Assembly (NCBI GenBank): GCA_947629935.1
Contig: CANRFQ010000003.1
Location: 10,986-74,985, forward strand
DNA from: an uncultured Bacilli bacterium
Lineage (GTDB): Bacteria > Bacillota_I > Bacilli_A > RF39 > UBA660
Length of the DNA stretch: 64,000 nucleotides
Direction: 5' to 3'
Both the position numbers and the translations under genes were made by a program. The notes under the pieces were generated by a model. That model ran no database searches, was not told where the DNA came from, and saw only the letters and a program-made list of their open reading frames with translations. Below are positions 1,271 to 48,383 of the stretch, piece after piece (the first letter of the stretch is position 1; the number at the start of each line of letters is the position of its first letter).

Positions 1271-2512
1271 ATGGAAAATTTAAAGAAGAAAACTTTTTTG
1301 ACAATTTTTATTATAATTTCAGTGTTTGCTTTTGTTTTTGCTATTTTCTTTAATGTTCAAACATATCGGCGAGAATATACGGGGATATTAAATAATTTAA
1401 CCCGAATGCGCAATTTAACTATGCAAAGACACGAACCAATTGACAAAGAAATCAAACCGATAGATGATGAACTTCGTAATCGTAAAGTTATGGATTATGA
1501 AATATATACCTTTATTTTAAATGATAATAATGATATCATTGATAAAATAAGTCATAGTGATAATGCTATAAGTGATGAGATAATAACTAAAGCTAAACAT
1601 ATTATTGCTAATAACAATACTAGCAAAGTAAAAATTGGTCTTTTATATTTAGAAAGTTATGCTTATAATTTTGCAGATAATAATTCTTTAACTATTGTAA
1701 ATATTTCTAATACTAGGAATATGTTACTTATCAATTTAGTTATTTCTTTACTTTTAATTGGAATTGGGGAAATTATTATTTATATTATTTCGAAAAAAAT
1801 AACGGAATGGATTACCAAACCGGTTTTGGAAAGTTTCAATCGCGAGAAGGAATTTGTGGCTAATGCTTCTCATGAACTTAAAACTCCTCTGGCTGTTATG
1901 ATGGCAAGCATTGATTGTTTAGATGTAAATAAGAAAAATGAAAAGTGGATAAACAATTTAAAAAGCGAGTCAGATCGAATGAGTAACTTGATAACAAGAT
2001 TACTTGATTTATCTAAAACTGAATATTTGCCGAAAGAAAATTTTCGTAAAAATGATATTTCAATGATCGTTGAAAAAAGAGCATTGACATTTGAAAGTTT
2101 AGCTTACGAAAAAAATATAACTATAGAAACTAATATTGCTTCTAAAATAAATATTTTATGTCATAAAGAAAGCATAGATGAATTAGTATCTATTTTAATT
2201 GATAATGCAATAAATCACGCCCAAGAAAAAAGTAAAATTAAGATTAATCTAACTAGTGATAAATCTGAAATAAAATTAGAAGTAATTAATAAGGGAGAAC
2301 CTATATCCCCTGATGAATGTGAGAAGATATTTGAAAGATTTTATCGCAATGATAAAAGTCATAATCGTAAAAGTGGAAGATATGGCCTAGGTTTGGCTAT
2401 TGCCAAAAATATTGTAGTATCCCATAATGGTAATATTAGAGCTTATTCCCAAAATGGATATACCACTTTCGAAGTTAAATTTAAAAAAATGAGCATTAAC
2501 GAAAAAAGTTAA
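1271..2512 (+). CDS. Sensor histidine kinase
   Basis: Two N-terminal transmembrane segments, a HisKA motif ASHELKTPLAV, and an HATPase_c G-box GLGLAIAKNIV. The start lies 4 nt after the response-regulator stop. Confidence 0.8.
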   Translation: MENLKKKTFLTIFIIISVFAFVFAIFFNVQTYRREYTGILNNLTRMRNLTMQRHEPIDKEIKPIDDELRNRKVMDYEIYTFILNDNNDIIDKISHSDNAISDEIITKAKHIIANNNTSKVKIGLLYLESYAYNFADNNSLTIVNISNTRNMLLINLVISLLLIGIGEIIIYIISKKITEWITKPVLESFNREKEFVANASHELKTPLAVMMASIDCLDVNKKNEKWINNLKSESDRMSNLITRLLDLSKTEYLPKENFRKNDISMIVEKRALTFESLAYEKNITIETNIASKINILCHKESIDELVSILIDNAINHAQEKSKIKINLTSDKSEIKLEVINKGEPISPDECEKIFERFYRNDKSHNRKSGRYGLGLAIAKNIVVSHNGNIRAYSQNGYTTFEVKFKKMSINEKS

Positions 2513-2574
2513 TGTTTTTTAATGTTTCTTTAATATTTACATAATAAAATGATATTGTTTAAAGGAGGAAGATT

Positions 2575-4017
2575 ATGTTTATCTTAAAAAATGCATGGAT
2601 TTCGATTAAAAGAAATAAAGGAAGGAATATTTTAATAGGAATAATTATTTTAATTATTGCTTGTGCCTGTACGATAACTTTGGCCATTAAAAATACGGCT
2701 GTCGATTTGATTGATTCTTATAAAAGTGCTTATGACAAGGAAGTAACAATTGGCTTTAATAGAGAAAATATGATGAAAGACTTCAATCCTGCTGATGAAG
2801 AAGGAAGGGCAAGTGCTCGAGAAAAATTTGATAATATCGCCAGTTACACAATTAATGATGTTGAGTCTTTTGCCGATAGTGATTACATCGAAAGCTATTA
2901 TTACACTTATAGTGTTGGTTTAAATGGAAATGATATCGAAAAAGCCGAAATCGAATCAAATGATGATATGCCCAATGGGTTTGGCCATGGTAAAGAAAAT
3001 AATATGTCATCTACAGATTTCAATTTAACAGGTTATAGTTCACAAGATGCCATGAGTGAATTTATAAGTGGCACTTATACAATGAGTGAAATAACAGATA
3101 ATGCTTGGGATGTGGCCTTTGATGGTAATTATGTTTTTATTAATGAAGAACTAGCTACTTTTAATAATTTAAAACTAAATGACAAAATAAAGTTAGAAGA
3201 CGAAGATGGCAACGTTTATGAATTTGAAATTATTGGGATATTTAAAGAAAATGACGATGAAAACGAGCAACCTATGTCAATGTTTTCTAATTCTGTAAAT
3301 ACAATCATAACAAATAGTAATGCAGTTGTAAATTTGACAAATGGAAACGAAAATTTACAAGCTTCAATTTATCCTACCTTTATTATCGATTCTTATGATA
3401 ATGTGGAAAAATTACAAGATGAATTCTATGAAAAAGGATTAGATGAGAACTTCATATTACAAACTAATGAAGAGTTAGCCTTAAGTGGGGTTTCCAGTAT
3501 TAAAAATATTAATTCATTTGCAACTACTTTCTTAGTTATTACCCTTATTATTGGGGGAATTGTTCTATTTATAATCAATATGATAAATATTCGCGAAAGA
3601 AAATATGAAATCGGGGTTTTAAGAACGATTGGTATAAGTAAATTAAAATTAACTATGCAATTTGTATCAGAACTAGTAATTGTTTCCTTAGTCGCTCTAA
3701 TGTTAGGGGCTGGAATCGGCGCAGTAAGCTCTAAAGGAGTAAGTAATTCTTTACTAGAAAGTGAAATAAATAGTAGTAAAGAAACAACAGAAGAAGTAAA
3801 TAAAAATTTTGGTAATCATGGTGGCGAAAGAGGCGGTATGCATGGCAAAGGGATGCCAGTTGTCGAAGCTTATGATTCTATTGATGCCGTAGTTGACATT
3901 AAAGTTTTAGTGGAATTGCTGGGAATTAGTGTTTCTCTAGTATTAATAAGTTCAATTGCTTCAATGGTTAGTATTCAAAGATTTTCACCACTTACAATAT
4001 TGAAAGAGAGGTCTTAA
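2575..4017 (+). CDS. ABC transporter permease, FtsX/MacB-like (N-terminal TM segment, large extracytoplasmic domain, C-terminal 3-TM FtsX module)
   Basis: Hydrophobic N-terminal segment, then a large hydrophilic domain, then a C-terminal FtsX-like hydrophobic block (IGVLRTIGISKLKL...). RBS AAGGAGGA precedes the start. Confidence 0.7.
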   Translation: MFILKNAWISIKRNKGRNILIGIIILIIACACTITLAIKNTAVDLIDSYKSAYDKEVTIGFNRENMMKDFNPADEEGRASAREKFDNIASYTINDVESFADSDYIESYYYTYSVGLNGNDIEKAEIESNDDMPNGFGHGKENNMSSTDFNLTGYSSQDAMSEFISGTYTMSEITDNAWDVAFDGNYVFINEELATFNNLKLNDKIKLEDEDGNVYEFEIIGIFKENDDENEQPMSMFSNSVNTIITNSNAVVNLTNGNENLQASIYPTFIIDSYDNVEKLQDEFYEKGLDENFILQTNEELALSGVSSIKNINSFATTFLVITLIIGGIVLFIINMINIRERKYEIGVLRTIGISKLKLTMQFVSELVIVSLVALMLGAGIGAVSSKGVSNSLLESEINSSKETTEEVNKNFGNHGGERGGMHGKGMPVVEAYDSIDAVVDIKVLVELLGISVSLVLISSIASMVSIQRFSPLTILKERS

Positions 4018-4019
4018 AA

Positions 4020-4778
4020 ATGGCAAATACGAAAAAAAATAACAATGTTTCTAAGGAAAAAACAAAAGATAATACAGAAGTTAAAGAAAAAAGTACATCA
4101 CCAAAGAATATTATTTTAAGTATTAAAAAAGCTAGCTATCGCTATAGTGACGCGGAAGAAAATGATTATGCTTTAAAAGATATTAGTTTTGATTTTGAAA
4201 GTGGAAAAATGTATGCTATAAGAGGTCGAAGTGGTACTGGAAAGACTACATTATTATCTTTAATAAGTGGACTGGAAAGATGTAGTGAAGGGGAAATTAT
4301 ATTTGATGGGAAAAGTCTAAAAGATATGAATTTGGATAAATATCGCAATAGTGATATCGGTATTGTTTTCCAAAGTTATAATTTGTTGCCTTTTATGACA
4401 GCTAGTGAAAATATAATTCTTTCTATGGATGCTAGTGGTCTAAAAATTAAAAATAAAAAGGCCAAAGCCATCGAACTTATGGAAAAAGTCGGATTAAAAG
4501 AAACTTATGCAGATCGTAAAGTATTAAGATTATCTGGTGGAGAACAACAAAGAGTAGCTATTGCCCGAAGTCTATCTTATAACCCGAAAATGATTATTGC
4601 TGATGAACCAACTGGAAATCTTGATAAGCAGACAGAAACAGAAATTTTAGAAATATTTAAAAAATTAGCTCATGAAGAAAACAAATGTGTAATTATTGTC
4701 ACACATTCCCAAAATGTTTGTGATACTGTTGATAAAATTTATGACTTACAAAAACTTCCAGAAAAAAAAGGTAAATAG
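4020..4778 (+). CDS. ABC transporter ATP-binding protein (MacB/LolD-like)
   Basis: Walker A GRSGTGKTT, ABC signature LSGGEQQRVAIARSL, Walker B IIADEPTGNLD, H-loop VTHS. Confidence 0.85.
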   Translation: MANTKKNNNVSKEKTKDNTEVKEKSTSPKNIILSIKKASYRYSDAEENDYALKDISFDFESGKMYAIRGRSGTGKTTLLSLISGLERCSEGEIIFDGKSLKDMNLDKYRNSDIGIVFQSYNLLPFMTASENIILSMDASGLKIKNKKAKAIELMEKVGLKETYADRKVLRLSGGEQQRVAIARSLSYNPKMIIADEPTGNLDKQTETEILEIFKKLAHEENKCVIIVTHSQNVCDTVDKIYDLQKLPEKKGK

Positions 4779-8632: not shown

Positions 8633-9063
8633 AAGTCGTTATTCAAAGAGTAAAAAAAGCCATGGTAAAAGTTGATAATAAATTAATCAATCAAATTGAA
8701 CAAGGTTATTTATTACTGGTCGGTTTTACCCATAATGATACTATAGATCAAGTGGAGACATGTGTTAAAAAGATTATTAATCTCCGAGTGTTTGCGGATG
8801 AGAATAATTTAATGAATAAAAGTATTTTAGATATAAAAGGAAGTATTTTATCGATATCTCAGTTTACATTATATGCCAATACCAAAAAGGGCAATCGACC
8901 CTCTTTTATCGACGCGCTAAATCCTCAAGATGCTAAGCATTTATATGAACAATTTAATGCTAAATTAAATGAATATGTTCCTACATATAGCGGAGTATTT
9001 GGTGCCGATATGCAGGTGGAACTTTTAAATGATGGACCGGTTACGATAATATTAGACAACTAA
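8629..9063 (+). CDS. dtd: D-aminoacyl-tRNA deacylase
   Basis: MKVVIQRV...SQFTLYANTKKGNRPSF... is the classic Dtd sequence. It overlaps the relA stop by ATGA, and relA-dtd linkage is conserved. Confidence 0.9.
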   Translation: MKVVIQRVKKAMVKVDNKLINQIEQGYLLLVGFTHNDTIDQVETCVKKIINLRVFADENNLMNKSILDIKGSILSISQFTLYANTKKGNRPSFIDALNPQDAKHLYEQFNAKLNEYVPTYSGVFGADMQVELLNDGPVTIILDN

Positions 9064-9152
9064 AAGTTAAAGAGCAATCTTTAATTTTTTTACAAATGTT
9101 AAACTTAGTTGAACAGTCAACTTAAATAATTGATTATGTTGCCAATATTTAA

Positions 9153-9181
9153 TTGACAAAATAATAAATTAAATATATTAT
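9153..9181 (+). promoter_or_regulatory. Sigma-A-type promoter: TTGACA, 17-nt spacer, TATTAT
   Basis: TTGACA at 9153..9158, a 17-nt spacer, and TATTAT at about 9176..9181, upstream of the 9223 ORF. Confidence 0.45.
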
Positions 9182-9222
9182 AAGGCAATAAAATGTAAAT
9201 AAAGCTGGTTATAGGAGCAAAT

Positions 9223-9696
9223 ATGGAAAAAACAATTTTTTATTTAGAAAGTAAGAAATTTATAGATGAAAAAGGGTATACCTGTTTTAAGGCTCAAGAT
9301 ATATATCAAATAATTTCTCATAAGTTGGAATATAAAGATTTTTTAAAAATGATTAAATCTTTAATTGTTGATAGCTATGATTATGTAAAGATTCAGCCAT
9401 TAGAAAAAAAAGATTGCGTTTTGTCATTAACGGTTATTAGGAAGTTATTTAGGTTATTAGAAGTAGATTCGGACTTACAAATATATATAAGTCTTTTAAT
9501 TAAAAAAGAAAGATTGACCACAGAAATTATAGCTTTGCAATATCAGATAGACGATTTATTAAAAGCCCGTCAAAATATTGCGGATACAGGTAAGTATAAA
9601 AATTGGGCATTACATACTAATATGACCAGTTGCAAGTTAGCTTTATCCTTAAAAAAAGCCAAAATAAATGAATATTGCCATAAAGAAATGAGATGA
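9223..9696 (+). CDS. Hypothetical protein; possibly the N-terminal half of a degenerate HisRS-like gene (see 9702..10487)
   Basis: No recognisable motifs of its own. It sits immediately upstream of a HisRS-like C-terminal half and is 5 nt out of frame with it; the two ORFs together total about 420 aa, the length of a HisRS. Confidence 0.3.
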   Translation: MEKTIFYLESKKFIDEKGYTCFKAQDIYQIISHKLEYKDFLKMIKSLIVDSYDYVKIQPLEKKDCVLSLTVIRKLFRLLEVDSDLQIYISLLIKKERLTTEIIALQYQIDDLLKARQNIADTGKYKNWALHTNMTSCKLALSLKKAKINEYCHKEMR

Positions 9697-9701
9697 TTTG
9701 A

Positions 9702-10487
9702 ATGTTAGAAAATAGAAAATTATTATATATCAATAATATTTTAATGGCTCTTTGTGAAAAATATAATTATGAATTTTTAATAGATTCCGCGCAATTAGCC
9801 AAAATAAAAGAGTCAAGAAAAGTGTATTATACAGATTTTCAAAATTTTAATATTGAAGTTTTGAATTGTAACAATGCTTTTATCATCGCCGAAGTTATTA
9901 GCTTAGTTTATAATACCCTCCAATTATTAGGTTTAAAAAAAATAAAATTAAATATCAATAAGAGTTTAATGAAAGAATATTCCTTAGAAAAATTATCGGA
10001 ATATTTAGAATTACTTGATATAACTTATAACTTAGATTCTAAAGAGAGTGATCAAGAAATACTTTGGGATATCCAAATATCTAACTATAAAAGTAAACTA
10101 AGTATAGGTAAATATACAGATAATAAAATTTCGGGAGAACTAGCTTTAAACCAGGTATTAGATATATTAACCAAAGAAGAAATTAAACTACCTTTAGATA
10201 ACTCTATAGATGTATTTATTTGCTATCATAATGAGGAAGAGAAAGAGACAGCTTTATATTTAAGCCAAGATTTAAGAATTAATGGCTTTAGTTGTGATAC
10301 CGATTATTTAGATAGTGATTTCGAAAAGCAACTGAAAAAGTCTTTAGAATTTAATAGTAAATATGTTATAATTTTAGATGATCAAGATATAAATAATTTT
10401 GTTGTTAATATCAAAGATAATAAGACTAATGAAGAACAAAAAATCCCAATAAATGATTTAGTTGATTATTTAGATATGAATATGTAA
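9702..10487 (+). pseudogene. Degenerate histidyl-tRNA-synthetase-like paralog/remnant, covering the core C-terminal region and the class II anticodon-binding domain; catalytic motifs are lost
   Basis: IIAEVISLVYNTLQLLGLKKIKLNINKSL aligns to the HisRS VIALAMSIYEKAGLENVKLVINSLGD region. A degenerate motif-3 region is followed by a clear HGTP_anticodon-like domain (IDVFICYHNEEEKETALYLSQDLRINGFSC...KYVIILDDQDI...). There is no RBS. In Bacillus the syntenic order is relA-dtd-hisS-aspS. Confidence 0.45.
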
Positions 10488-10506
10488 TAGAAAAAGAGGT
10501 ATATTT

Positions 10507-11817
10507 ATGCAAACTATTAAAGTAAAAGATTTAGAGCAATTTTATGATCAAGAAGTTTTAATTCAAGGATTTGTTGAAAACATTCGCAATTTACAATATG
10601 TTATTTTTATGATTGTTAAAGATGAAACTGGCAAAGTGCAAGTAACAATTGAAAAAGAAAATAATGATGAGTTAGTTAAAATAGTAGAAGACTTAACTTT
10701 AGAAAGTACTATTAAAGTTATCGGAAAATGTTTAAATAGTCCTTCTGTTAAATTAGGGGGAAAAGAAATTATTCCCAAAGAAATTGAAGTTACTAGTAAA
10801 TCTTTAGAAGAATTACCAATTAATATTAAAGATAAAGATAAAACTTTACGAGAAACAAGATTAGATTATCGTTTTTTAGATTTAAGAAGAGAAGACAATA
10901 ATTTACTTTTTAAAATCGAAACAACATTTGAACATGCTTTAAGAGAATACTGTATTAATAACGGTTTTATGGAAATTCATTCTCCAAAAATATCTGCATC
11001 CGCTGCAGAAAGTGGAGCCGAGACTTTTAAATTAGATTATTTTGGCGAGCAAGCATGCCTTTCGCAATCTCCTCAATTTTATAAGCAAATGGCCATGGCT
11101 TCTGGCTTTGGTAAAGTATTTGAAATTGGTCCAGCTTTTAGAGCGGAAAATTCTCATACTTCTTATCATGCGACCGAAATAAACATGGCTGATATTGAAA
11201 TTTCTTTTATTGATAGTTTTGCAGATGTCATGGATATGGAAGAGGCTTGGTTAAAATATGCTTTTTCGAAAGTTTATGAAAAATATGGTGACCAAATTCA
11301 AAAAGAATTTAAAACGGAACTTTCTAATTTAGATGTTGCTTTTCCGCGCATAACTTTTAAGGAGGCTAAAAAGATCTTAAAAGAAGAATATCATTTTGAA
11401 GGGGAAAGAACAGATGACTTTGAACGTAAAGAAGAAATGCTTTTATGTAAATATGCCAAGAAAAAATACAATAGTGATTTTATTTTTGTAACTAAGTATC
11501 CATTTGCCGCGCGTCCTTTTTATCACAATTTAGATGAAGAAGGTTTAACTAATAGTTATGATTTATTATATCGTGGGGTTGAAATAACTACCGGTGCCCA
11601 AAGAGAACATCGCGTAGATATCTTAGTTAACCAAATAAAAGAGAAAGGTATTGATCCTGAATCTTTAGAGTTTTATATTGAATTTTTCAAATATGGTTGT
11701 CCACCTCATGGCGGATTTGCAATTGGAATCGCCCGTGTTTTAATGCAAATGTTAAATATTGATAATATTAGAGAAGCTACATTTATATATAGAGGTCCCA
11801 CAAGATTAAAACCATAA
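10507..11817 (+). CDS. aspS: Aspartyl-tRNA synthetase, short archaeal/eukaryal-type (AspRS2; probably non-discriminating)
   Basis: 436 aa and collinear with archaeal AspRS: QSPQFYKQ motif, FRAE, and a C-terminus GAQREHRVDILVNQIKEKGIDPESLEFYIEFFKYGCPPHGGFAIGIARVLM. Bacterial-type AspRS is about 590 aa. Confidence 0.85.
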   Translation: MQTIKVKDLEQFYDQEVLIQGFVENIRNLQYVIFMIVKDETGKVQVTIEKENNDELVKIVEDLTLESTIKVIGKCLNSPSVKLGGKEIIPKEIEVTSKSLEELPINIKDKDKTLRETRLDYRFLDLRREDNNLLFKIETTFEHALREYCINNGFMEIHSPKISASAAESGAETFKLDYFGEQACLSQSPQFYKQMAMASGFGKVFEIGPAFRAENSHTSYHATEINMADIEISFIDSFADVMDMEEAWLKYAFSKVYEKYGDQIQKEFKTELSNLDVAFPRITFKEAKKILKEEYHFEGERTDDFERKEEMLLCKYAKKKYNSDFIFVTKYPFAARPFYHNLDEEGLTNSYDLLYRGVEITTGAQREHRVDILVNQIKEKGIDPESLEFYIEFFKYGCPPHGGFAIGIARVLMQMLNIDNIREATFIYRGPTRLKP

Positions 11818-11846
11818 TAACAAATTAAAATAAAGGAGAAAATACT

Positions 11847-13220
11847 ATGGACTTAAAAGATATATTTCAAGATAATTATTTAAATAAAGAAGTTACTTTA
11901 AAAGGTTGGATTAAAAATCATCGTCGTCAAAAAGAGTTTGGCTTTATTGATTTTAGTGATGGTACTTGTTTTAAAAGTATTCAATTAGTTTATGATAATT
12001 CTTTACCTAACTTTGAAGAAATTTCCCATTTATTAGTAGGAAGTGCTATAAAAATACAGGGAACCGTTATCGAAAGCCAAGGTAATCAAGATATTGAAAT
12101 TAAAATCACTTCTTTAGAAGTTTTAGTAAAATCTTCCGAAGACAATCCAATTCAACCGAAAAGACATACTCGGGAATTTTTAAGAGAAGTATCTTATCTT
12201 CGCCCGCGTACTAATTTATTTAATGCGGTCTTTAGAGTACGTAGTACTGTTGCTGGAGCTATCCATAAATATTTTCAAGAGAAAGGCTATGTTTATGTTC
12301 ATTCGCCAATTTTAACAGCTAATGATGGGGAAGGCGCTGGGGAAATGTTTAAGGTTACCACTTTTGATTTAGCTAATGTTCCAAAAACTGAAGATGGTAA
12401 TATTGATTATAAACAAGATTTCTTTGGGCAAAAAGTTGGCCTTACAGTTACGGGCCAGTTACAAGCGGAAGCTTATGCCTTAGCTTATAAAAAAGTATAT
12501 ACTTTTGGTCCTACTTTTCGAGCTGAGGTTTCCCATACGAAAAATCATGCTTCCGAATTTTGGATGATTGAACCAGAAATTGCTTTTTGTGATTTAGAGG
12601 GCTTAATGGATATTGAAGAAGATTTATTAAAATATTTAATCAAATATACTTTACAAAATTGTCCAGAAGAAATGGAATTATTTAATAAGTTTGTCGAACC
12701 AGGTATTATTGAAAGATTAAAAAAAGTCTTAGATACCAAAGCTGTACGCATTACTCATGCCGAGGCTATTAAAATATTAAAAGAAAGTGGCCAAAAATTT
12801 GAATTTGAACCTAAAGATGGAGAAGATATTGCTACCGAACACGAAAAATATTTAACCGAAGAATATTTTAAAGCTCCAGTTTTTGTTAAAGATTGGCCTA
12901 AAGAAATAAAAGCCTTTTACATGCGTCTTAATGATGATCAAAAAACTGTTGCTGCTGTTGATTTATTAGTTCCTGGTAGTGGAGAATTAATGGGTGGTTC
13001 GCAAAGAGAAGAAAGACTAGCTGTTTTACAAAAGAAAATGCAAGAATTAGGTGTTCCGGAAAAAGGCTTAGAATGGTATTTGGATTTAAGACGTTTTGGT
13101 GGAGGACTTTCGAGCGGTTTTGGAATGGGCTTTGAAAGATTAATTATTTATCTTACAGGCGTGGATAATATTCGTGATGTTATTCCATTCCCAAGAACAC
13201 CAAATAGTTGTGATTTTTAA
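11847..13220 (+). CDS. asnS: Asparaginyl-tRNA synthetase
   Basis: Near-collinear with E. coli AsnRS (…YLRPRTN…ANDGEGAGEMF…FGPTFRAE.SHT..H..EFWM.EPE…VIPFPRTP). Confidence 0.9.
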   Translation: MDLKDIFQDNYLNKEVTLKGWIKNHRRQKEFGFIDFSDGTCFKSIQLVYDNSLPNFEEISHLLVGSAIKIQGTVIESQGNQDIEIKITSLEVLVKSSEDNPIQPKRHTREFLREVSYLRPRTNLFNAVFRVRSTVAGAIHKYFQEKGYVYVHSPILTANDGEGAGEMFKVTTFDLANVPKTEDGNIDYKQDFFGQKVGLTVTGQLQAEAYALAYKKVYTFGPTFRAEVSHTKNHASEFWMIEPEIAFCDLEGLMDIEEDLLKYLIKYTLQNCPEEMELFNKFVEPGIIERLKKVLDTKAVRITHAEAIKILKESGQKFEFEPKDGEDIATEHEKYLTEEYFKAPVFVKDWPKEIKAFYMRLNDDQKTVAAVDLLVPGSGELMGGSQREERLAVLQKKMQELGVPEKGLEWYLDLRRFGGGLSSGFGMGFERLIIYLTGVDNIRDVIPFPRTPNSCDF

Positions 13221-13255
13221 TTAAATTGTTAAAAATTTAAAGTAGGGTGAAGTTT

Positions 13256-13555
13256 ATGTATTATTACAATAATTTAATAGAGTGTATATTATATTTAAAA
13301 CATTATGAACAAAACAAATTGTTTTTAGAGGCTTTTTATGAAGAATTAGCTACTGGTACAACACCAAATTTAATTAAATATAATCCGGAATATACTTTAC
13401 GTTATTTAAAATTTAAACAAGATTATTTAAGGGAACTAGCTACGGCCAAATCTTTAATTAATCAACAATATTACTTAAACGAAATTCAAAATAAAACAAA
13501 AGAAGAAAGTTTAAATATTGAACTTAAAATTAGTTATCAGTCAAGGAGTTTTTAA
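13256..13555 (+). CDS. Hypothetical small protein (about 99 aa; the ORF track starts at 13247 with GTG)
   Basis: GGGTGA RBS precedes the ATG at 13256. It is translationally coupled to the next ORF through an ATGA overlap at 13555. No recognisable domain. Confidence 0.35.
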   Translation: MYYYNNLIECILYLKHYEQNKLFLEAFYEELATGTTPNLIKYNPEYTLRYLKFKQDYLRELATAKSLINQQYYLNEIQNKTKEESLNIELKISYQSRSF

Positions 13556-13779
13556 TGATTTTAGATAAAATGCAAGCCCAAATTGATGAAATTATGAATT
13601 ATGAGTCTAACATCCGTTTTATGACTATCAAGACTTGGCAAGAACAAAGAGTTCCTCTTACTTACATGTTTAAACCGCAAGAAGAAGAAAGATATGCCTT
13701 GTGGCTTAAAAATTATTTACAAGCTCAAAAGAAGTTTTTAGAGTTACTAAATTCTCATGTGGAACGCAAATTAAAATAG
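13555..13779 (+). CDS. Hypothetical small protein (74 aa); not GatC-like
   Basis: AAGGAG RBS 7 nt upstream. It sits between asnS and gatB, and the sequence does not resemble GatC. Confidence 0.35.
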   Translation: MILDKMQAQIDEIMNYESNIRFMTIKTWQEQRVPLTYMFKPQEEERYALWLKNYLQAQKKFLELLNSHVERKLK

Positions 13780-13793
13780 AAAGGATAATCTTT

Positions 13794-15221
13794 ATGAAAT
13801 ATATTCCAACCATTGGTTTAGAGTTACATTGTGAAATGAATACTAAATCAAAAGTTTTTTCGCCGGCTAGAAATGAATATAATGAAATTCCCAATCTTAA
13901 TGTTAAACCTTTAGACATGGCTTTTCCGGGAACTTTACCTGTTTTAAATAAAGAAGCCTTAAGAAAAGCGTTTAGAATGGCTCTAGCCTTAAATTGCCAA
14001 ACGCCCGATATTTTACTATTTGATCGAAAAAACTATTACTATCCCGATTTACCTAAAGGCTATCAAATAACGCAAATGAAAAATCCCGTGGGAATTAATG
14101 GTTATTTGGATATTGATGTTAATGGTTGTGAAGAAAGAATATTAATTCATGATATTCATTTAGAAGAAGATACAGCCTCTCAAGATCACTATGATGATTA
14201 TTCCTTATTAGACTATAATCGTTCTGGCGTTCCTTTAGTCGAAATTGTTACAGAGCCATGTATTCATTCGGCTGAGGCTGCTGTAAGTTATTTAGAAACT
14301 TTACGCAATACTTTTAAATATTGTGATATTTCCTTAGCTGATACTAAATTAGGACAAATTAGATGTGACGTTAACGTTTCTTTAGCTCCTGAGAAAACTA
14401 ATAAATTGGGAACTAAAGTAGAAATGAAAAATATTAATTCTTTTGCTAATGTTGCTAAAGCTATTGATAGAGAAATTCAAAGACAAATGGATTTAATAAG
14501 CCAAGATAAACAAGCCGAAATTGTTCAAGAAACTAGACGTTATGATGAAGAGACAAATCAGACGATAAGTATGCGTAGTAAAGTAGACGCTATTGATTAT
14601 AAATATTTTGTCGAAGCTAATATTCCGAAAATGACTATTTCTGATGATTATATAGAAGAAATTAAAAAAGAAATTCCGGTATTACCTTATTATCGTTTTA
14701 AAAAGTATACCCAAGAATATCAGTTAACTACTAAAGAAGCTAATTTACTGATTAAAGAAAAAGAATTGGCAGATTATTTTGATAAATGTATTGCCATTGG
14801 TATTAATCCTAAATCAGCAGCTAATTGGATAATAGTCAATATTATTACAGAATTAAATAAAGAAGATATAAAAATAAGTGAATTTTATTTAACTCCTGAG
14901 TTTTTAAAACAAATAATTTCTAAGATTGATGATAATACTATATCTTCTAAACAAGCTAAAGAAATATTTAAAAAATCTATTGAAAATCACAAAGAACCTC
15001 GAGAATTTATGACTAACGAGAATACGCAATTATCAAATGAAGCAGAACTTAGAAATATTATTGAAACGATTATTAATAATAATCAAGAACAAGTGAAAGA
15101 TTATCAAAACGGCCATGATAATTTATTTAAATATTTTGTTGGTCAAGTAATGAAAGAAACTAAAGGTAAGGCTAATCCTATATTGACTAATGAAATATTA
15201 AAAGAATATTTAGACAAATAA
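13794..15221 (+). CDS. gatB: Asp-tRNA(Asn)/Glu-tRNA(Gln) amidotransferase subunit B
   Basis: 475 aa and collinear with B. subtilis GatB (IGLELHCEMNTKSKVFS…YPDLPKGYQITQ…HLEEDT…, with a C-terminal YqeY-like domain). RBS GAAAGGATAA. Confidence 0.9.
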   Translation: MKYIPTIGLELHCEMNTKSKVFSPARNEYNEIPNLNVKPLDMAFPGTLPVLNKEALRKAFRMALALNCQTPDILLFDRKNYYYPDLPKGYQITQMKNPVGINGYLDIDVNGCEERILIHDIHLEEDTASQDHYDDYSLLDYNRSGVPLVEIVTEPCIHSAEAAVSYLETLRNTFKYCDISLADTKLGQIRCDVNVSLAPEKTNKLGTKVEMKNINSFANVAKAIDREIQRQMDLISQDKQAEIVQETRRYDEETNQTISMRSKVDAIDYKYFVEANIPKMTISDDYIEEIKKEIPVLPYYRFKKYTQEYQLTTKEANLLIKEKELADYFDKCIAIGINPKSAANWIIVNIITELNKEDIKISEFYLTPEFLKQIISKIDDNTISSKQAKEIFKKSIENHKEPREFMTNENTQLSNEAELRNIIETIINNNQEQVKDYQNGHDNLFKYFVGQVMKETKGKANPILTNEILKEYLDK

Positions 15222-15247
15222 CATTATTTATATTGCAAAATAAAATA

Positions 15248-15345
15248 GGAAATTATATAATATAAATGTAAGTGCTAAATGTATGGCATTTACACAATGT
15301 GGGTAGACGTTATGTTAATTTTTTTAACGGCGTCGCATCTACTCC
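15248..15345. other. Structured GC-richer segment (nested inverted repeats) in the gatB 3' region
   Basis: A 9-bp stem tgtaagtgc/gcatttaca with a 10-nt loop, followed by nested repeats gtaga..cgtta..taacg..tctac. Function unknown. Confidence 0.2.
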
Positions 15346-15351
15346 TAAATG

Positions 15352-15420
15352 AAAACGTTCGTCAATTCGAACGTTTTTTCATGTAAATAAAAAAGAGAGT
15401 TTGGCTCTCTTGATTTTGGT
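15352..15420. terminator. Two tandem rho-independent terminators between the convergent gatB (+) and cotZ-like (-) genes
   Basis: aaaacgttcg-tcaatt-cgaacgtttt is a 10-bp stem flanked by an A-run and a T-run (bidirectional). aagagag-tttgg-ctctctt is followed by a T-rich tail. Confidence 0.7.
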
Positions 15421-15426
15421 TTATTT

Positions 15427-15894
15427 TTAAACACAATCAACTGTTGTATCACTTAAGCATTTAATGCAGCAAACGCAACTTAAGTTCATTGTAAAGAAAG
15501 AATTTGTTGCTACATATGGCATAGAATTGCAGCAGCTTGGTTCGGGATTGTCAGCTAAAACTCTGAATGTTGCACAATTACCATCTATTTTTTCAACTCT
15601 AAATACACATGAGCAGCAATTATTACCATTATCACTAGCTTGAGGATTAGAACATGTTATTGAGCTATCTTTACAAACAGGCATTGTCCATGGTGTTCCA
15701 TTACCGCAGCAAGTATATAACATAACTGGTCTTGTATTGCAGATTAAACAATTTGGGCCACCACCTAGCATAGGACGATCACAAGAATCTAAACAATTTT
15801 CGGGACTTGCATTTTGTTGAAGAATTAAAATGACATTTAATATATCAGCTATGCAGTTTCCTTGATTATTAGATGTCGAATTATTATTACACAT
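15427..15894 (-). CDS. CotY/CotZ-family Cys-rich spore coat/crust protein (the track ORF extends to 15921; the start is more likely the ATG at 15894, which has an AAAGGGTGA RBS)
   Basis: NNCCSCVFRVEKIDGNCATFRVL matches the B. subtilis CotZ segment NGPCFNTVFFRVERVHGSCATLSLL. NLSCVCCIKCL matches DLDCFCAINCL. 23 Cys residues in total. Confidence 0.55.
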   Translation of the reverse strand: MCNNNSTSNNQGNCIADILNVILILQQNASPENCLDSCDRPMLGGGPNCLICNTRPVMLYTCCGNGTPWTMPVCKDSSITCSNPQASDNGNNCCSCVFRVEKIDGNCATFRVLADNPEPSCCNSMPYVATNSFFTMNLSCVCCIKCLSDTTVDCV

Positions 15895-15958
15895 ATTATT
15901 CACCCTTTCATGTATTCTCACTAATAATTTATGTGAAAAGAATAAAAGAGTGCCAGTA

Positions 15959-19189: not shown

Positions 19190-19366
19190 TTAGTTGCATC
19201 TTTTTTCATAACTTTCACATATAGTTGCACTTTTATCTTTGTTATTATTTTTAGTCCCTACTAAAATTTTGGCTAAAGTACAACGTTTATCACTCGCATT
19301 ATGATAAGTGCAATCTGCTACATTACAATCGATGCATTGATTAAAATAAGGATCTTTGCCTTCCAT
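19190..19366 (-). CDS. DUF1540-like small Cys-rich protein (about 58 aa from the internal ATG; the track ORF starts at a TTG at 19513)
   Basis: QCIDCNVADCTYHNASDKRCTLAKILVG fits the DUF1540 pattern I.C.V..C.Y…C.A..I.V. GGTGA lies 4 nt before the ATG at 19366. Confidence 0.4.
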   Translation of the reverse strand: MEGKDPYFNQCIDCNVADCTYHNASDKRCTLAKILVGTKNNNKDKSATICESYEKRCN

Positions 19367-19431
19367 GTTATCACCATTATTAGTATGTATAATAATAGAA
19401 AAATTATGCATCATAATAATAGGTGAATAAT

Positions 19432-19626
19432 ATGAAATATATTGATTATCATTATAAACAGTCAGCTTTAGAATATCAGGATGAATTAGAACGTCAAAGA
19501 TTTGAATTAACAAATGAATACGGTTATAACTTTGATTGTGAGACTAAAAGACACATAAATGATGAAAGTTTATTTATGCGTCCTAAAAATCTTGTCAATA
19601 AGGATTTTATTAACTTAAAAAGATAG
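19432..19626 (+). CDS. Hypothetical 64-aa protein (the track ORF starts at a GTG at 19423)
   Basis: AGGTGA RBS lies 6 nt before the ATG at 19432. The gene is divergent from the DUF1540-like gene. Confidence 0.3.
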   Translation: MKYIDYHYKQSALEYQDELERQRFELTNEYGYNFDCETKRHINDESLFMRPKNLVNKDFINLKR

Positions 19627-26062: not shown

Positions 26063-26155
26063 GGAGGAATACCCAAGTCTGGTTGAAGGGACCGGTCTTG
26101 AAAACCGGGAGGTCGTGCGAACGGCGCAGGGGTTCGAATCCCTTTTCCTCCGCCA
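26063..26155 (+). tRNA. tRNA-Ser (anticodon UGA), long variable arm, encoded CCA
   Basis: Acceptor stem GGAGGAA/TTCCTCC, anticodon loop CTTGAAA, T-loop GGTTCGAATCC. Confidence 0.85.
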
Positions 26156-26163
26156 TGTGTTAT

Positions 26164-26240
<77 letters not shown>

Positions 26241-26243
26241 ATT

Positions 26244-26319
26244 GGTTCCGTAGTGTAGCGGTTATCACGTCTGCCTGTCACGCAGAAGATCGCGGGTTCA
26301 ATTCCCGTCGGAACCGCCA
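26244..26319 (+). tRNA. tRNA-Asp (anticodon GUC)
   Basis: Acceptor stem GGTTCCG/CGGAACC, anticodon loop CTGTCAC, 3' CCA. Confidence 0.85.
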
Positions 26320-26322
26320 TTT

Positions 26323-26398
<76 letters not shown>

Positions 26399-36446: not shown

Positions 36447-38792
36447 ATGAATTACAATAATTTATATCCTGAAACTTTACCGGAACCGTTGAATGATAGT
36501 CAATTAAAAGATTATTTTCTAAAATATAAAAATGGCGATTTAAAAGCCAGAAACGAAATTATAAAACATAATCTTCGTTTTGTTATTCATATAGTCGAAA
36601 AACGCTTTAAAAATATTGATCTTGACAAAGAAGAGTTAGTTAGTATTGGAACTGTAGGTTTAATAAAAGCCGTTGATACATATGATGTTTTAAAAAACAT
36701 AAAATTTGCTACCTATGCTGGACGCTGTATAGAAAATGAAATTCTCATGTTTTTGAGAGTAAATAATAAACATTTAAACAATATTAGCTTAGAAGAACCA
36801 TTAGGTGATAACGATAAGCTTACATTGGCAGATACGTTGGAAGATAAACAAATTAATATAGAACTCGATTATGAGGCTAAAGATGAATTAAATTATTATC
36901 AAAAAATCCTTTCGAAAGCTTTATCTTTATTAGATTCAAGAGAAAGGCAAATAATAAATTATTACTATTATCATAAAATGACGCAAAGCCAAATAGCAGA
37001 CAAATTAAATTTATCTCAATCCTATTTGAGTCGAATAAAAAAAAATGTAATAAAAAAATTAAAGAAGATAATAGAAGCAAAAAATATAAATATTGCTGAT
37101 TTTTCAAAACTGGAGATTAAAGAAGGAGGAATTAAACAAATGAGTAAAATACGTTCAATAGAAAAATTTTTCCCCAATAATACCATAGAAGAACTTTTAA
37201 TAGCAAGCAATAAATTATCAGCCAAAGAAAAAGAAATTTTATATTTATATTATGGATTAAATGGTAAACAAGAGCAAACGACAGAAACCATTGCTAAGCA
37301 ATATGGATATACAAAATCATCAATCACAACTAGTGTAATTCCGCGTATCAGAGAAAAGCTAAAAAAAATATTAACTAATCCCAATTTAATTGAAGAAGGT
37401 AAGAACACAGGTGTAAGATTAAAAGGTTTAAAGCAATTTTTCCCTGATCAAAGTTTAGATGATATATTAACTGCGAGCAATAAATTATCAGCCAAAGAAA
37501 AAGAAATTTTTGATTTATATTATGGATTAAATGGAAAACAACAGCAAACGGCAGAAACTATTGCTAAGCAATGTGGATATACAAAATCATCAATACAAAC
37601 TGGTGTAATTCCGCGTATTAGGAAAGAGTTAAGGGAAATATTAGCTAATCCTAATTTAAATGAAACAAGTGTAAGATTAAAAGGTTTAAAACAATTTTTC
37701 CCTGATCAAAGTTTAGATGATATATTAACTGCGAGCAATAAATTATCAGCCAAAGAAAAAGAAATTTTTGATTTATATTATGGATTAAATGGAAAACAAG
37801 AGCAAACGACAGAAACTATTGCTAAGCAATATGGATATTTAAAATCTACATTACAAACTAGTGTAATTAAGCGTATTAGGAAAAAGTTAAGAAAAATGTT
37901 AGTTAACCCTAATTTAAATGAAGAAGGTAAGAAAACAAGTTTGAGATTAAACAGTTTAAAAAAATTTTTCCCTAATAATACCATAGAAGAACTTTTAATA
38001 GCAAGCAATAAATTATCAGCCAAAGAAAAAGAAATTTTTGATTTATATTATGGATTAAATGGAAAACAAGAGCAAACGGCAGAAACTATTGCTAAGCAAT
38101 ATGAATATGCAAAATCTACATTACAAACTAGTGTAATTCCGCGTATTAGGAAAGAGTTAAAGAAAATATTAGAGACTGCTCACACTCAAAAGATTAGTTA
38201 TGAAAATATTCAAAAAGCTATCCAAGAAATAGAAAAACAAATTTACAATAATACCTTTGATGAAAACAACTTATCATATAAAATTGGTGATGAAACAATT
38301 TATGTTGATATTATCGATACTAAATGTTCTTTAGCTTTTAAATCTAGCAAAACAGGTTTATTAGATAGAATTCATGCCCAAAAGAAAAAATGTTTAGTTT
38401 ATAAGATATATTTAAGTCAACCACATGATAATATTCAAGATAAATATATTATTAAAGATAAGAAAACCAATAAATGTTATAAATATGTTTATCTGTATGA
38501 AGATGGCAATTTTGATTTAACTGGCGTTTTAAATGAATTAGTTTGTTTTAAAATGGAAAATATTAAAATTGAAACACTCCCATCTTTAAATAATAATTAT
38601 AATGCCCAAAAGACACAAGAATATATAAAACGAAAAAAACTAATTGAAGAACAAAAGGCAGAAGAAAAACAATATCAAATAAATTTAGAAGAAGCAATTG
38701 ACCTACTTAAAAATCAAAATTATTCTGAGGCTATTAAAAAATTAGAAGCTAGTTTAAAGTCTACTAATCCTACAAACTTTAGCCTCAGTTAA
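36447..38792 (+). CDS. Sporulation-type group-3 sigma factor (SigE/SigK-like sigma2-sigma4 core, about 235 aa, with no pro-sequence) fused to four tandem additional sigma-region-4-like HTH domains, plus a C-terminal domain of about 200 aa with no recognised family
   Basis: The N-terminal core (KARNEIIKHNLRFVIHIVEKRF…LVSIGTVGLIKAVDTYD…KFATYAGRCIENEILMFLR, then LSQSYLSRIKKNVIKKLKKI) closely matches B. subtilis SigK/SigE. After that come four repeats of about 95 aa (…ASNKLSAKEKEIFDLYYGLNGKQEQTxETIAKQYGYxKSxxQTSVIPRIRKxLxK…) that align to the SigE region 4.2 sequence ([50 protein letters not shown]). The single ORF is 781 aa. Confidence 0.7.
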   Translation: MNYNNLYPETLPEPLNDSQLKDYFLKYKNGDLKARNEIIKHNLRFVIHIVEKRFKNIDLDKEELVSIGTVGLIKAVDTYDVLKNIKFATYAGRCIENEILMFLRVNNKHLNNISLEEPLGDNDKLTLADTLEDKQINIELDYEAKDELNYYQKILSKALSLLDSRERQIINYYYYHKMTQSQIADKLNLSQSYLSRIKKNVIKKLKKIIEAKNINIADFSKLEIKEGGIKQMSKIRSIEKFFPNNTIEELLIASNKLSAKEKEILYLYYGLNGKQEQTTETIAKQYGYTKSSITTSVIPRIREKLKKILTNPNLIEEGKNTGVRLKGLKQFFPDQSLDDILTASNKLSAKEKEIFDLYYGLNGKQQQTAETIAKQCGYTKSSIQTGVIPRIRKELREILANPNLNETSVRLKGLKQFFPDQSLDDILTASNKLSAKEKEIFDLYYGLNGKQEQTTETIAKQYGYLKSTLQTSVIKRIRKKLRKMLVNPNLNEEGKKTSLRLNSLKKFFPNNTIEELLIASNKLSAKEKEIFDLYYGLNGKQEQTAETIAKQYEYAKSTLQTSVIPRIRKELKKILETAHTQKISYENIQKAIQEIEKQIYNNTFDENNLSYKIGDETIYVDIIDTKCSLAFKSSKTGLLDRIHAQKKKCLVYKIYLSQPHDNIQDKYIIKDKKTNKCYKYVYLYEDGNFDLTGVLNELVCFKMENIKIETLPSLNNNYNAQKTQEYIKRKKLIEEQKAEEKQYQINLEEAIDLLKNQNYSEAIKKLEASLKSTNPTNFSLS
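37150..38190 (+). repeat. Four divergent tandem repeats of about 260-285 bp, in an A-B-B'-A' pattern, encoding the extra sigma4-like domains
   Basis: Units 1 and 4 share FFPNNTIEELLIASNKL; units 2 and 3 share FFPDQSLDDILTASNKL. The copies differ by scattered substitutions, so this is not an assembly duplication. Confidence 0.75.
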
Positions 38793-45800: not shown

Positions 45801-46850
45801 ATGACTTATTTAGAAATAATGAAAAAAGCTTTAGATTACTATATAAATGAGCCATATAATAAAAAATTTAATCAATTTTGGCAAAATGAGTATTATTTAG
45901 AATCAAAAGAAAATAAGCCAAAGATAAAACAAGAATATAAAGATTTACAAGCATATTTAATATTTAAAACGCTTTATTCTAAAAAACTTTTAACTAAAGA
46001 ACAAATTAATAAGTTAAAAAAATTAGAAATAAAATTAACTACTTTCAATCCTGCACTTCGTGACCTTCATTATCTTTCACAAATGCAGATCAATGCTGCT
46101 GTAGATCCTTATTATTATGATTCTTTATGTTTACTTAAAACGGAAGAATTATCTGATGAAAAACGACAAGAGTTAGAAGATTATATTAATGGTAATATTA
46201 CCTGGGATAAAGATTCCATTGGTATTATTCAAACACCTATTGAACAAATTATTACGGAAACTTGTGTAATATTAGGAGATTTATTTTTTAGCGAACAAAG
46301 TTACAAATATATTCCTAAAGAATACTATATTGAAAATGCTAAGCTACGTCAGGAATGTTATGAGTTATTAAATGCTAACATTTGAAACAAACACTTGGAG
46401 GTAGATGATTATAAGTCTTTATATTTTTCTGTCAAAGCATTAAATGTTATTTTAGATTTAGCCAAAGCTGGTAAAGAAGATTGGCTTTCTAAATTAGAAA
46501 AAATTGATACATCTTATACTCGAAATTCAAATTTGCGTGTTAGTAATCCCATGATAAGTATTATATTTAATTCCAAAAAAGTTAATGCTTTAAATCTACA
46601 AACCAATGCTTTTGAAAATACTTTAAATAATTTGTATCTCAATTTCTTTTTAGGTGATAATTCTTATATAAATAAATTTTCTGATAGTCAAATATCTTTA
46701 TTGTTATTTTATTATTTTAAAGATAATAACAGTCCCAATATAATTGCCGATATTATTGCAAATCAAGATAAATTGTTCCAAACATTAAACACTACAGAAA
46801 AAGATTACATTAAAGGAGAACACTTACGAAAATTAATTAAAAGTAATTGA
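45801..46850 (+). pseudogene. Hypothetical gene interrupted by a single in-frame TGA at 46383..46385 (track ORFs 45801..46385 and 46395..46850 share one frame)
   Basis: A strong RBS AAGGAGGGGGA precedes 45801. The second ORF has only a TTG and no RBS, and the two frames are identical (…LLNANI*NKHLEVDDYK…). This is a nonsense mutation or a readthrough site. Confidence 0.4.
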
Positions 46851-47099: not shown

Positions 47100-48383
47100 A
47101 TGAAATTAAGTCGTTTAAATATTAAAAAAATTAATTTAAATGATGTGTCTGATAATTATGCAGGTCAAGACATTCTAATGAAGTTAGGAGAACTTTATCA
47201 GTTTGAAAGTGGTATTTATGGTTATGGTAATATCTGGACTAAATTAGAAAGAGTAGTTGAAGATATTATTATTGATGAATTAGATAAAGCCGGTTGTATT
47301 CAAGTGGAATTTCCTAAATTACAACCACGAAAAATTTGGGATCAATCTAAACGTTGGGATATGTATACTAAAGATGGGGACATTATGTTTACTTTAAATA
47401 ATAATTTAGGGGAATATGGTCTTGCTCCTACGGCGGAAGAATGTGCCACTTTATTTGGAGCTAATCGCCTGCCTTCTTATAAAAATTTACCAACTACTTA
47501 TTATCAAATAGGAGAAAAATTTCGTAAAGAAATAAGAGCTCGTGGTTATTTGTTTCGTCCTCGTACTTTCGTGATGATGGATGCTTATTCCTTTGATAAA
47601 ACAGAGGAAGATATGCGTAAAACTTATGAGTTAATGCATGAAGTTTATTTAAAAATATTTGCTCGATTAGGTATTAAAATTATTCCTACTGTAAGTGATA
47701 ATGGGGTAATAGGTGGAAGTGTTGCGGAAGAATTCCAAGCTATTACTAAATTGGGCGAAGATAATATTTTATATGATGAGCAAACAAATATTGGTTTAAA
47801 TAAGGAAGTTCTAGAATTTGCAAATAAAGAAGAGTATTTAAAACAATTAAATATTACCGATATTAATAATTTAAAAGAATATCCTGCGGTTGAACTAGGA
47901 AATAATTTTCAATTAGGTACTAAATATTCGGAAAGCATGCAATTATACTATGTTGATGAAGAGGGGAAACAAAAACCTTACTATATGGGATGTTATGGTA
48001 TTGGTTTAGGACGTATTATTGCTTGTTTAATTGAAAATAATATTATTTTCAAAAATGAAAAAGTTAAAGGCTTTTCTTTACCATATAACATTGCTTATTA
48101 TAAAGTACAAATTATTTATAATGAGCAAAACCAAGAAAAAGCTGAAGAACTATATCAGGAGCTCGTGGCTAGTGGAGTAAAAGCTATTCTTGATGACCGT
48201 GAAAATTTAAATATTGGTAATAGAATTAATGATGTCTATGTTTTAGGTACGCCAACAATGATTGTTTTAGGTAATAAATTTAATGATACAGAGTATGAAG
48301 TAGAGCATACTAAAGATGGTCAAGTAACTAAAGTTTTAAAAAAAGATATAATTTCATACTTTCTAAATAAAAATAAAAATTAA
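47100..48383 (+). CDS. proS: Prolyl-tRNA synthetase, short form (427 aa, lacking the bacterial INS editing insertion)
   Basis: Class II motif 2, FRKEIRARGYLFRPRTFVMMDAYSF, matches the ProRS IR.E.RPR.G..R.REF.MKDAYSF. The N-terminus LMKLGELYQFESGIYGYG resembles the ProRS …LRAGFIRQ.ASGIY. The upstream T-box is consistent with the CCU specifier. Confidence 0.7.
   Translation: MKLSRLNIKKINLNDVSDNYAGQDILMKLGELYQFESGIYGYGNIWTKLERVVEDIIIDELDKAGCIQVEFPKLQPRKIWDQSKRWDMYTKDGDIMFTLNNNLGEYGLAPTAEECATLFGANRLPSYKNLPTTYYQIGEKFRKEIRARGYLFRPRTFVMMDAYSFDKTEEDMRKTYELMHEVYLKIFARLGIKIIPTVSDNGVIGGSVAEEFQAITKLGEDNILYDEQTNIGLNKEVLEFANKEEYLKQLNITDINNLKEYPAVELGNNFQLGTKYSESMQLYYVDEEGKQKPYYMGCYGIGLGRIIACLIENNIIFKNEKVKGFSLPYNIAYYKVQIIYNEQNQEKAEELYQELVASGVKAILDDRENLNIGNRINDVYVLGTPTMIVLGNKFNDTEYEVEHTKDGQVTKVLKKDIISYFLNKNKN

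Follow-up and report, generated by a model that had tools for sequence, protein, structure and literature searches.

A gatB gene without adjoining gatC and gatA in an aminoacyl-tRNA synthetase operon of uncultured gut Bacilli

The stretch of DNA considered here, referred to below as the window, comprises 64,000 nucleotides of contig CANRFQ010000003.1 from an uncultured Bacilli bacterium (assembly GCA_947629935.1). It has a G+C content of 28% and is most closely related to metagenome-assembled genomes (MAGs) from the rabbit gut (‘Lapin’). Between positions 9153 and 15411, on the + strand, lies an operon in which a promoter-like site is followed by seven co-directional, tightly packed genes and a terminator-like hairpin. 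The last of these genes is gatB, which encodes the B subunit of the tRNA-dependent amidotransferase GatCAB, and neither gatC nor gatA adjoins it. GatCAB is essential in most bacteria that have no glutaminyl-tRNA synthetase (GlnRS). To our knowledge, no description of it lacks a dedicated glutaminase, which is GatA or, in archaea, GatD. An operon that keeps gatB without these partners bears on the modularity of this ancient pathway.

The DNA in view was the 64-kb window together with the flanks of the relatives’ loci. Relatives were collected by scanning species-representative genomes with GatB and then by examining the genomic context of GatA homologues; the loci are numbered with the prefix L.

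A synthetase operon that ends in gatB

The gene order is orfU, a histidyl-tRNA synthetase (HisRS) remnant, aspS, asnS, orfA, orfB and gatB. The features of the operon are listed below, with lengths in amino acids (aa) and with AspRS standing for aspartyl-tRNA synthetase.

9153-9181, + strand: promoter-like site, TTGACA, 17-nt spacer, TATTAT, 5' of orfU; 11 of 12 positions agree, a consensus match only
9223-9696, + strand: orfU, 157 aa, family U, clade-specific, 5' of the hisS slot
9702-10487, + strand: HisRS remnant, 261 aa, with PF03129 as its sole match
10507-11817, + strand: aspS, archaeal/eukaryal-type AspRS, 436 aa, NF003483
11847-13220, + strand: asnS, asparaginyl-tRNA synthetase (AsnRS), 457 aa, NF003037
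13256-13555, + strand: orfA, 99 aa from its ATG, family A, helical, clade-restricted
13555-13779, + strand: orfB, 74 aa, family B, helical hairpin, clade-restricted
13794-15221, + strand: gatB, full-length, 475 aa, GatB_N and GatB_Yqey domains
15393-15411, no strand assigned: bidirectional terminator-like hairpin between gatB and a convergent cotZ-like gene; a consensus match only

The promoter-like site is the top-scoring match between 6000 and 16000, and judging by this motif the operon likely starts there. Rfam searches of the whole window at the gathering threshold found no T-box leader or other RNA element in or 5' of the operon, and a search of 8900-15500 at E values up to 1 found no T-box or other leader either. 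A first-pass annotation, made from the letters of the window, had named five of the genes (aspS, asnS, orfA, orfB and gatB); their identities and coordinates were all borne out.

Loss of gatC and gatA and the small genes between them

The first-pass annotation had also pointed out that gatC and gatA do not adjoin gatB, and the searches agree with it. By tblastn, neither the 64-kb window nor any of the closest related contigs matched the relatives’ GatA and GatC sequences, a set of three GatA sequences gave no match in the window or in L005-L009, and Pfam found no GatC among the window proteins, whereas gatA lies directly 5' of gatB in 163 of 170 related loci. Two further loci stop at a contig edge. 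Among the GatB-centred loci, gatA is found immediately upstream of gatB in 84 of 90; among the GatA-centred metagenome loci, gatB follows immediately after gatA in 79 of 80. Apart from one contig-edge locus per set, the only real exceptions are the window, L005, L006, L008 and L009. These five make up one clade in both the GatB and the AspRS trees, and the loss thus took place in a single ancestor. Among bacteria of this phylogenetic neighbourhood, a gatB gene without gatC and gatA is unusual, and a literature search for bacteria that have gatB and lack gatA found nothing.

The source sequences are metagenome assemblies, in which a missing gene can be an artefact of assembly or binning. Here this is vanishingly improbable. 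The layout without gatC and gatA was recovered repeatedly from independent assemblies in ENA, Logan and NCBI (L001-L009), which argues that it is no assembly artefact. The junctions on either side, between asnS and orfA (or orfX) and between orfB and gatB, are repeated in at least nine independent contigs from the same three sources, and these contigs span lineages whose GatB sequences diverge by 17-25%.

The relatives show what the operon looked like before the loss. In the distant relatives L011-L013, the order is hisS-aspS-asnS-gatC-gatA-gatB, with a bacterial-type aspS. The nearer clade carries an archaeal-type aspS in the same slot, and in L086 this gene is accompanied by a clean gatCAB. 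Most members of the nearer clade also have small open reading frames (ORFs) at fixed slots: family U 5' of hisS, family H between hisS and aspS, and families X, A and B between gatC and gatA. Such insertions are seen in L010, L087, L088, L090-L092, L095 and L096, and hidden Markov models (HMMs) of the five families match only at those operon positions. The clade is made up of uncultured gut Bacilli with small genomes, and its operon typically reads orfU-hisS-(H)-aspS(archaeal type)-asnS-gatC-X-A-B-gatA-gatB. From this arrangement, one common ancestor of the window lineage lost gatC and gatA, and it did so by two separate deletions, since X-A-B, which lies between the two genes, was retained. 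The deletion junctions in the window clade are clean, with a ribosome-binding site kept at each. Family X was lost later, in the window and in L005.

The first-pass annotation took the small ORFs to stand in the place of gatC and gatA. Synteny speaks against this. In sister lineages that keep both genes, X, A and B sit between them, and GatC and family A are present together in L010, L087, L088, L091, L095 and L096; the small ORFs are therefore older than the loss. They are real genes that form an older, vertically inherited, clade-specific accessory module, and only their position ties them to the amidotransferase. What the comparison brings to light, within a synthetase/amidotransferase operon, is a group of conserved small proteins that are restricted to the clade.

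Selection on these genes is uneven. Compared with L005 and L006, orfA has a ratio of nonsynonymous to synonymous substitution rates (dN/dS) of 0.085, purifying selection as strong as that on gatB, while the constraint on orfB is moderate (0.25-0.30) and the values for orfU range from 0.10 to 0.33. Family A occurs in 11 lineages at a constant operon position, and a profile search of 1.84 billion representative proteins returned only nine clusters of it, all of 61-101 aa. Homologues of family B lie directly 5' of gatA in L088, L090-L092, L095 and L096 and directly 5' of gatB in the window clade, and those of family U keep the same position in L005, L006, L008, L009, L087 and L095.

In the window, orfA and orfB are each preceded by a Shine-Dalgarno-like sequence, and an alternative GTG start at 13247 would lengthen OrfA to 102 aa. 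The first-pass annotation had the sizes of the two coupled ORFs right (99 and 74 aa) and the junction wrong: instead of a four-base ATGA overlap, the sequence reads TAATGA, in which the TAA stop of orfA (13553-13555) overlaps the ATG of orfB by one base and an in-frame TGA comes next. Both products are predicted, with moderate confidence, to be soluble helical proteins. The AlphaFold2 model of OrfA has three to four helices at a mean predicted local distance difference test (pLDDT) score of 75.6, and that of OrfB is a two-helix hairpin at a mean pLDDT of 72. Foldseek gave no significant PDB fold match for either model, only generic helical hairpins at E > 1.

Pfam, NCBIfam, PHROG and PADLOC hold no match to orfU, orfA or orfB, and an origin of the small ORFs in phage, defence or other known families was rejected on the strength of PHROGs, PADLOC and Pfam. 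The same fate befell the idea that they are a divergent GatC or remnants of gatC or gatA, given the lack of sequence or profile similarity and their coexistence with both genes in sister lineages. Against GatC (PF02686), neither orfA nor orfB has a Pfam or NCBIfam match at E values up to 0.1. The hhalign probability of a relationship with GatC is 0.3% for family A and 0.2% for family B, and below 2% for A, B and X alike, so that the dissimilarity to GatC remarked on in the first-pass annotation stands. Similarity to GatF was likewise not found, and according to hhalign the small-ORF families are not related to each other.

Some further details of the related loci may be recorded. An X ORF of 85-86 aa lies between asnS and orfA in L006 (9192-9452) and L008 (9186-9443); it is absent at 13221-13255 of the window and deleted in L005. 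In the sister lineages, X measures 76-185 aa, with three copies in L088. Family H, from the hisS/aspS slot (6016-6441 in L008), is without a database match and is absent from the window. L009 has no asnS, gatC or gatA between aspS and gatB (1931-4295), where two unrelated small ORFs of 75 and 95 aa are found; if AsnRS is truly missing from that genome, amidotransferase activity would be indispensable to it. In the short Logan contig L093 (1379-3293), GatA is 73% identical to the L010 type and 60-65% identical to the other core GatAs, and the partial GatB that follows is about 60% identical to all core GatBs; this contig may be chimeric.

GatB and its possible partners

GatB of the window matches the expected families throughout, up to equivalog-level models: PF02934 (1e-103) and PF02637 (1.7e-45) in Pfam, NF004012 at 566 bits (cut-off 338) and TIGR00133 at 516 bits (cut-off 315). 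It aligns over its full length with the GatB chains of 3H0L, 2DF4 and 3AL0 and has the cradle, the helical domain and the YqeY tail. Among gatA-adjacent GatBs, 108 columns show at least 97% conservation; the window protein keeps 107 of them, the sole change being P275A. Its dN/dS is 0.09-0.10 against the two closest genomes, compared with 0.03-0.15 for close pairs of gatA-adjacent GatBs. In solved GatB structures, the cradle domain holds the active site and the contacts to GatA and GatC. It is also the best-conserved domain in the window clade (83% identity, versus 80% in gatA-bearing lineages), and the domain-by-domain pattern of conservation is the same as in those lineages. Relaxed constraint on this GatA-facing domain is thus not seen, and a pseudogene or decaying copy is ruled out by dN/dS and column conservation. 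By all these measures, gatB is constrained like a working enzyme. That it might be a second copy had been put forward in the first-pass annotation as grounds for dismissing the case; synteny and the GatB and AspRS trees show instead that it is the orthologous, vertically inherited gene.

Decay, when it happens in this operon, can be detected, as it is visible in the neighbouring hisS; gatB shows none. The HisRS remnant scores 77 bits against TIGR00442, for which the cut-off is 287. Aligned with the full-length HisRS of L008, L009 and L010, it has lost the motif 1, 2 and 3 regions and the insertion domain, and its anticodon-binding domain is well kept. It is 45-48% identical to its orthologues, which are about 80% identical to each other, and its dN/dS against L005 and L006 is 0.7-1.9. 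The remnant ORF is uninterrupted in the window, L005 and L006, and the gene is full-length in L008 and L009. Going by the deleted motifs, the remnant is catalytically dead in the window species, and HisRS must therefore come from another locus. Either a functional HisRS is encoded elsewhere, or the remnant may be a tRNA(His)-binding pseudoenzyme.

After the deletion of gatC and gatA, gatB could have been kept because of foreign partners, because of a GlnRS combined with another use for GatB, or because of free ammonia. The explanation put forward here, tentatively and with a little less than an even chance of being right, is the first: GatB still performs both phosphorylation and amidation, and its glutaminase partner is encoded elsewhere and comes from a non-native lineage. 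The two deletions in the common ancestor removed gatC and gatA, and the small helical-protein genes and gatB now lie close together with their translation coupled. On this proposal, GatB would be the tRNA-binding kinase and amidation subunit for Glu-tRNA(Gln), and possibly for Asp-tRNA(Asn), and ammonia would be delivered by a partner outside the operon, a non-native gatCA or its equivalent. A non-native partner is proposed because the databases contain no native-type gatA for this lineage. Replacement from elsewhere has precedents in the operon itself, demonstrably in the case of hisS and probably in those of aspS and asnS.

Several observations weigh against a foreign partner. Only about 5% of the genome is in view. 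A foreign gatCA would usually arrive with its own gatB, and retention of the native gatB would then have to be explained separately. Where columns are at least 90% conserved, the window-clade GatBs deviate at 7-8 positions, whereas the median is 2 and the 90th percentile 6; this mild excess, at columns of moderate conservation, gives a hint that constraint has shifted slightly. The protein collection searched with the GatA of L010 holds 5.8 billion clusters and includes several window-clade assemblies, and no native-type gatA for the window clade was found in it. Genomic context was inspected for all GatA clusters placed with the sister lineages in the tree and for the next nearest pair; P0031, P0072 and P0050 fall outside the core clade and were not among these. 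Clusters P0014-P0022, P0032, P0033 and P0024 all lie directly 5' of their own gatB in a canonical operon. Since window-clade assemblies are in the collection and every inspected sister-type cluster nevertheless belongs to a canonical gatC-(X-A-B)-gatA-gatB operon, a relocated native gatA is unlikely, and the foreign one is only assumed.

The same empty search has been counted in favour of a different reading, in which GatA and GatC are simply gone and GatB has become an amidotransferase that needs no glutaminase and depends on ammonia. By itself, or scaffolded by X, A and B as new small subunits, the enzyme would phosphorylate Glu-tRNA(Gln) or Asp-tRNA(Asn). Free ammonia, plentiful in the rabbit caecum, would then serve to amidate the product and to yield Gln-tRNA(Gln) and perhaps Asn-tRNA(Asn). 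We regard this as unlikely. Native-type gatA is absent from the 5.8 billion clusters even though clade contigs are included, gatC and gatA were lost together in two deletions that spared gatB and the intervening ORFs, orfA is under purifying selection equal to that on gatB, and asnS is missing as well between aspS and gatB in L009. The joint loss fits the view that the role of GatC is tied to the folding of GatA and its docking onto GatB, and the kinase and amidation reactions both reside on GatB (PMC2330236); ammonium chloride can bypass the glutaminase in vitro (PMC4027206). Yet in every solved structure GatB is bound to GatA and to GatC or GatF, the cradle shows no relaxation where some would be expected if the large GatA/GatC interface were now free, and X, A and B are found alongside gatCA in sister lineages and hence did not arise as replacements. 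We know of no natural amidotransferase that consists of GatB alone; if this reading were true, it would be the first, and glutaminase loss would have taken place in an ammonia-rich gut niche.

Transamidation might also have become dispensable through the gain of a GlnRS in a cell that already has AsnRS, with gatB retained for a job of its own, such as the binding or handling of tRNA, or caught in early decay. AsnRS is present here and strongly constrained, synthetase genes have clearly been exchanged in the clade, and in Mollicutes the loss of GatCAB coincides with the gain of GlnRS, an exchange said to have occurred repeatedly in bacteria (PMC4014445). The Mollicutes lost three genes, though, not two, and early decay fits poorly with a gatB that is intact, has a normal dN/dS and keeps near-invariant catalytic columns across the window, L008 and L009, which differ by 17-25% in GatB. 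No GlnRS was seen in the 64 kb, where no search was aimed at glnS. On balance, this route is rather improbable. Frequent horizontal replacement of translation genes in the clade would also be compatible with a complete foreign gatCAB elsewhere, which would make the window gatB a redundant leftover. This is decidedly improbable, as the gene is a syntenic, vertically inherited orthologue, and redundancy should have led to decay of the kind seen in hisS, which is not what its dN/dS and conserved columns indicate. The 80 best GatB loci from the species-representative genomes, beyond which lie 208 weaker matches, include none from the L006-L009 MAGs; this is weak evidence on the point.

Among known systems, the canonical gatCAB of B. 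subtilis, S. aureus (2DF4/2G5H), A. aeolicus (3H0L) and T. maritima (3AL0) has the same GatB domains and catalytic columns and is present in close relatives of the window; the window operon differs in lacking gatC and gatA and in having three embedded clade-specific small genes. Departures from the three-subunit form are known. In the Plasmodium apicoplast, GatAB has dropped the small subunit and kept the glutaminase subunit. Yeast mitochondrial GatFAB (PMC4027206) has replaced the small subunit by GatF and also retains a dedicated glutaminase, of which none is visible in the window. In the archaeal GatDE (PMC2330236), the glutaminase is a different protein, GatD, and again the window operon shows none. 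The Acholeplasma and phytoplasma Mollicutes are low-GC, reduced-genome relatives of the Firmicutes that have also remodelled their glutamine route, but there all three gat genes are gone, whereas here gatB alone persists under purifying selection (PMC4014445). Whichever explanation holds for the window clade, the outcome would inform how modular the pathway is.

The neighbouring synthetases and the rest of the window

AspRS of the window has an OB fold and a class II core without a GAD insertion. It reaches 494 bits (cut-off 353) against NF003483, ‘aspartate--tRNA(Asn) ligase’, and 390 bits (cut-off 368) against TIGR00458, and its best PDB matches are the archaeal 3NEL and 1B8A and AspRS2 of T. 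thermophilus (1N9W). The gene is under strong constraint, with a dN/dS of 0.01-0.03. It fills the slot that holds a bacterial-type, GAD-containing aspS of about 575 aa in L011 (617-2344) and L012 (4437-6173) and also a bacterial-type gene in L013, which looks like in-place displacement of the bacterial by the archaeal type.

The first-pass annotation called this enzyme short (436 aa), archaeal and usually non-discriminating. The HMMs and PDB matches support the archaeal type; the non-discriminating status comes from the name of the family, and the NF003483 match is a family label, not a test of tRNA specificity. Feng et al., in PNAS in 2003, are said to have traced the charging of tRNA(Asn) to His and Pro at the positions of W26 and K85, which would mark the non-discriminating archaeal enzymes. 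The window AspRS was aligned with the discriminating enzyme of T. kodakarensis (1B8A), after which these positions are numbered, and with the non-discriminating T. thermophilus AspRS2 (1N9W); it has Glu (Glu24) and Lys (in ‘PSVKLGG’) there, and T. thermophilus AspRS2 has His23 and ‘AKAPGG’. The Glu/Lys pair occurs clade-wide with or without asnS or gatCA, including in L094, which has gatCAB and no asnS in its operon. The His/Pro rule may therefore not be transferable to the bacterial enzymes of this clade, and their AspRS may be discriminating or non-discriminating. A U1-A72 pair in tRNA(Asn) is a feature for recognition by the amidotransferase, but genes for tRNA(Asn) and tRNA(Gln) were found neither in the window nor in the related loci that were scanned.

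AsnRS has the class IIb architecture and matches the equivalog models NF003037 at 620 bits (cut-off 414) and TIGR00457 at 567 bits (cut-off 343), with a dN/dS of 0.03-0.05. Within the window clade, it is 84% identical to that of L095 (7104-8477) and 58-60% identical to those of other sister lineages, and it is 66-67% identical to those of the more distant L011, L012 and L016. The asnS tree is at odds with the aspS and gatB trees, which suggests allele replacement or recombination of asnS.

A direct route to Asn-tRNA (AsnRS) beside an indirect one was considered noteworthy in the first-pass annotation. AsnRS does stand beside gatB, but the combination is not new: AsnRS and GatCAB commonly co-occur, and both routes are possible in about 30% of 547 genera surveyed (PMC4206432). 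For the Firmicute Clostridium acetobutylicum, Saad et al. reportedly described, in J Biol Chem in 2012, a T-box-controlled operon for tRNA-dependent amidation. That operon combines redundant direct and indirect Asn-tRNA routes with an archaeal-type aspS. The window operon differs from it in that Rfam found no T-box and in the absence of gatC and gatA. Thermus thermophilus and Deinococcus radiodurans likewise have an archaeal-type AspRS2, AsnRS and amidotransferase genes (PMC4206432). There, the archaeal-type enzyme is a second AspRS beside the bacterial one, whereas in the window clade it apparently displaces the bacterial type; moreover, the window AspRS is without the His and Pro of the non-discriminating enzymes, and its operon is without GatA and GatC.

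Another synthetase gene lies farther along the window, at 47100-48383. It encodes a bacterial-type prolyl-tRNA synthetase (ProRS) of 427 aa without the INS editing domain, and its matches to models of 559-568 positions are split in two. Two ORFs of unknown function precede it, at 45801-46385 and 46395-46850. An unusual sigma-factor architecture is seen in the 781-aa protein encoded at 36447-38792, in which N-terminal sigma-70 regions 2 and 4 are followed by several region-4-like helix-turn-helix repeats; the next gene (38914-41331) encodes an 805-aa tetratricopeptide repeat (TPR) protein.

The gene convergent with gatB, at 15427-15921 on the - strand, encodes a cysteine-rich, CotZ-like spore-coat protein. 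Further small Cys-rich ORFs are found at 52112-52432 and, on the - strand, at 19190-19513, and one of these matches DUF1540 in L005. As read from sequence, these genes would point to a spore former, even though its relatives have small genomes (contigs of 1.0-1.5 Mb). Finally, the window includes a tRNA cluster at 26063-26398 (Ser-TGA, Met-CAT, Asp-GTC and Phe-GAA), with tRNA-Leu-TAA just upstream on the opposite strand.

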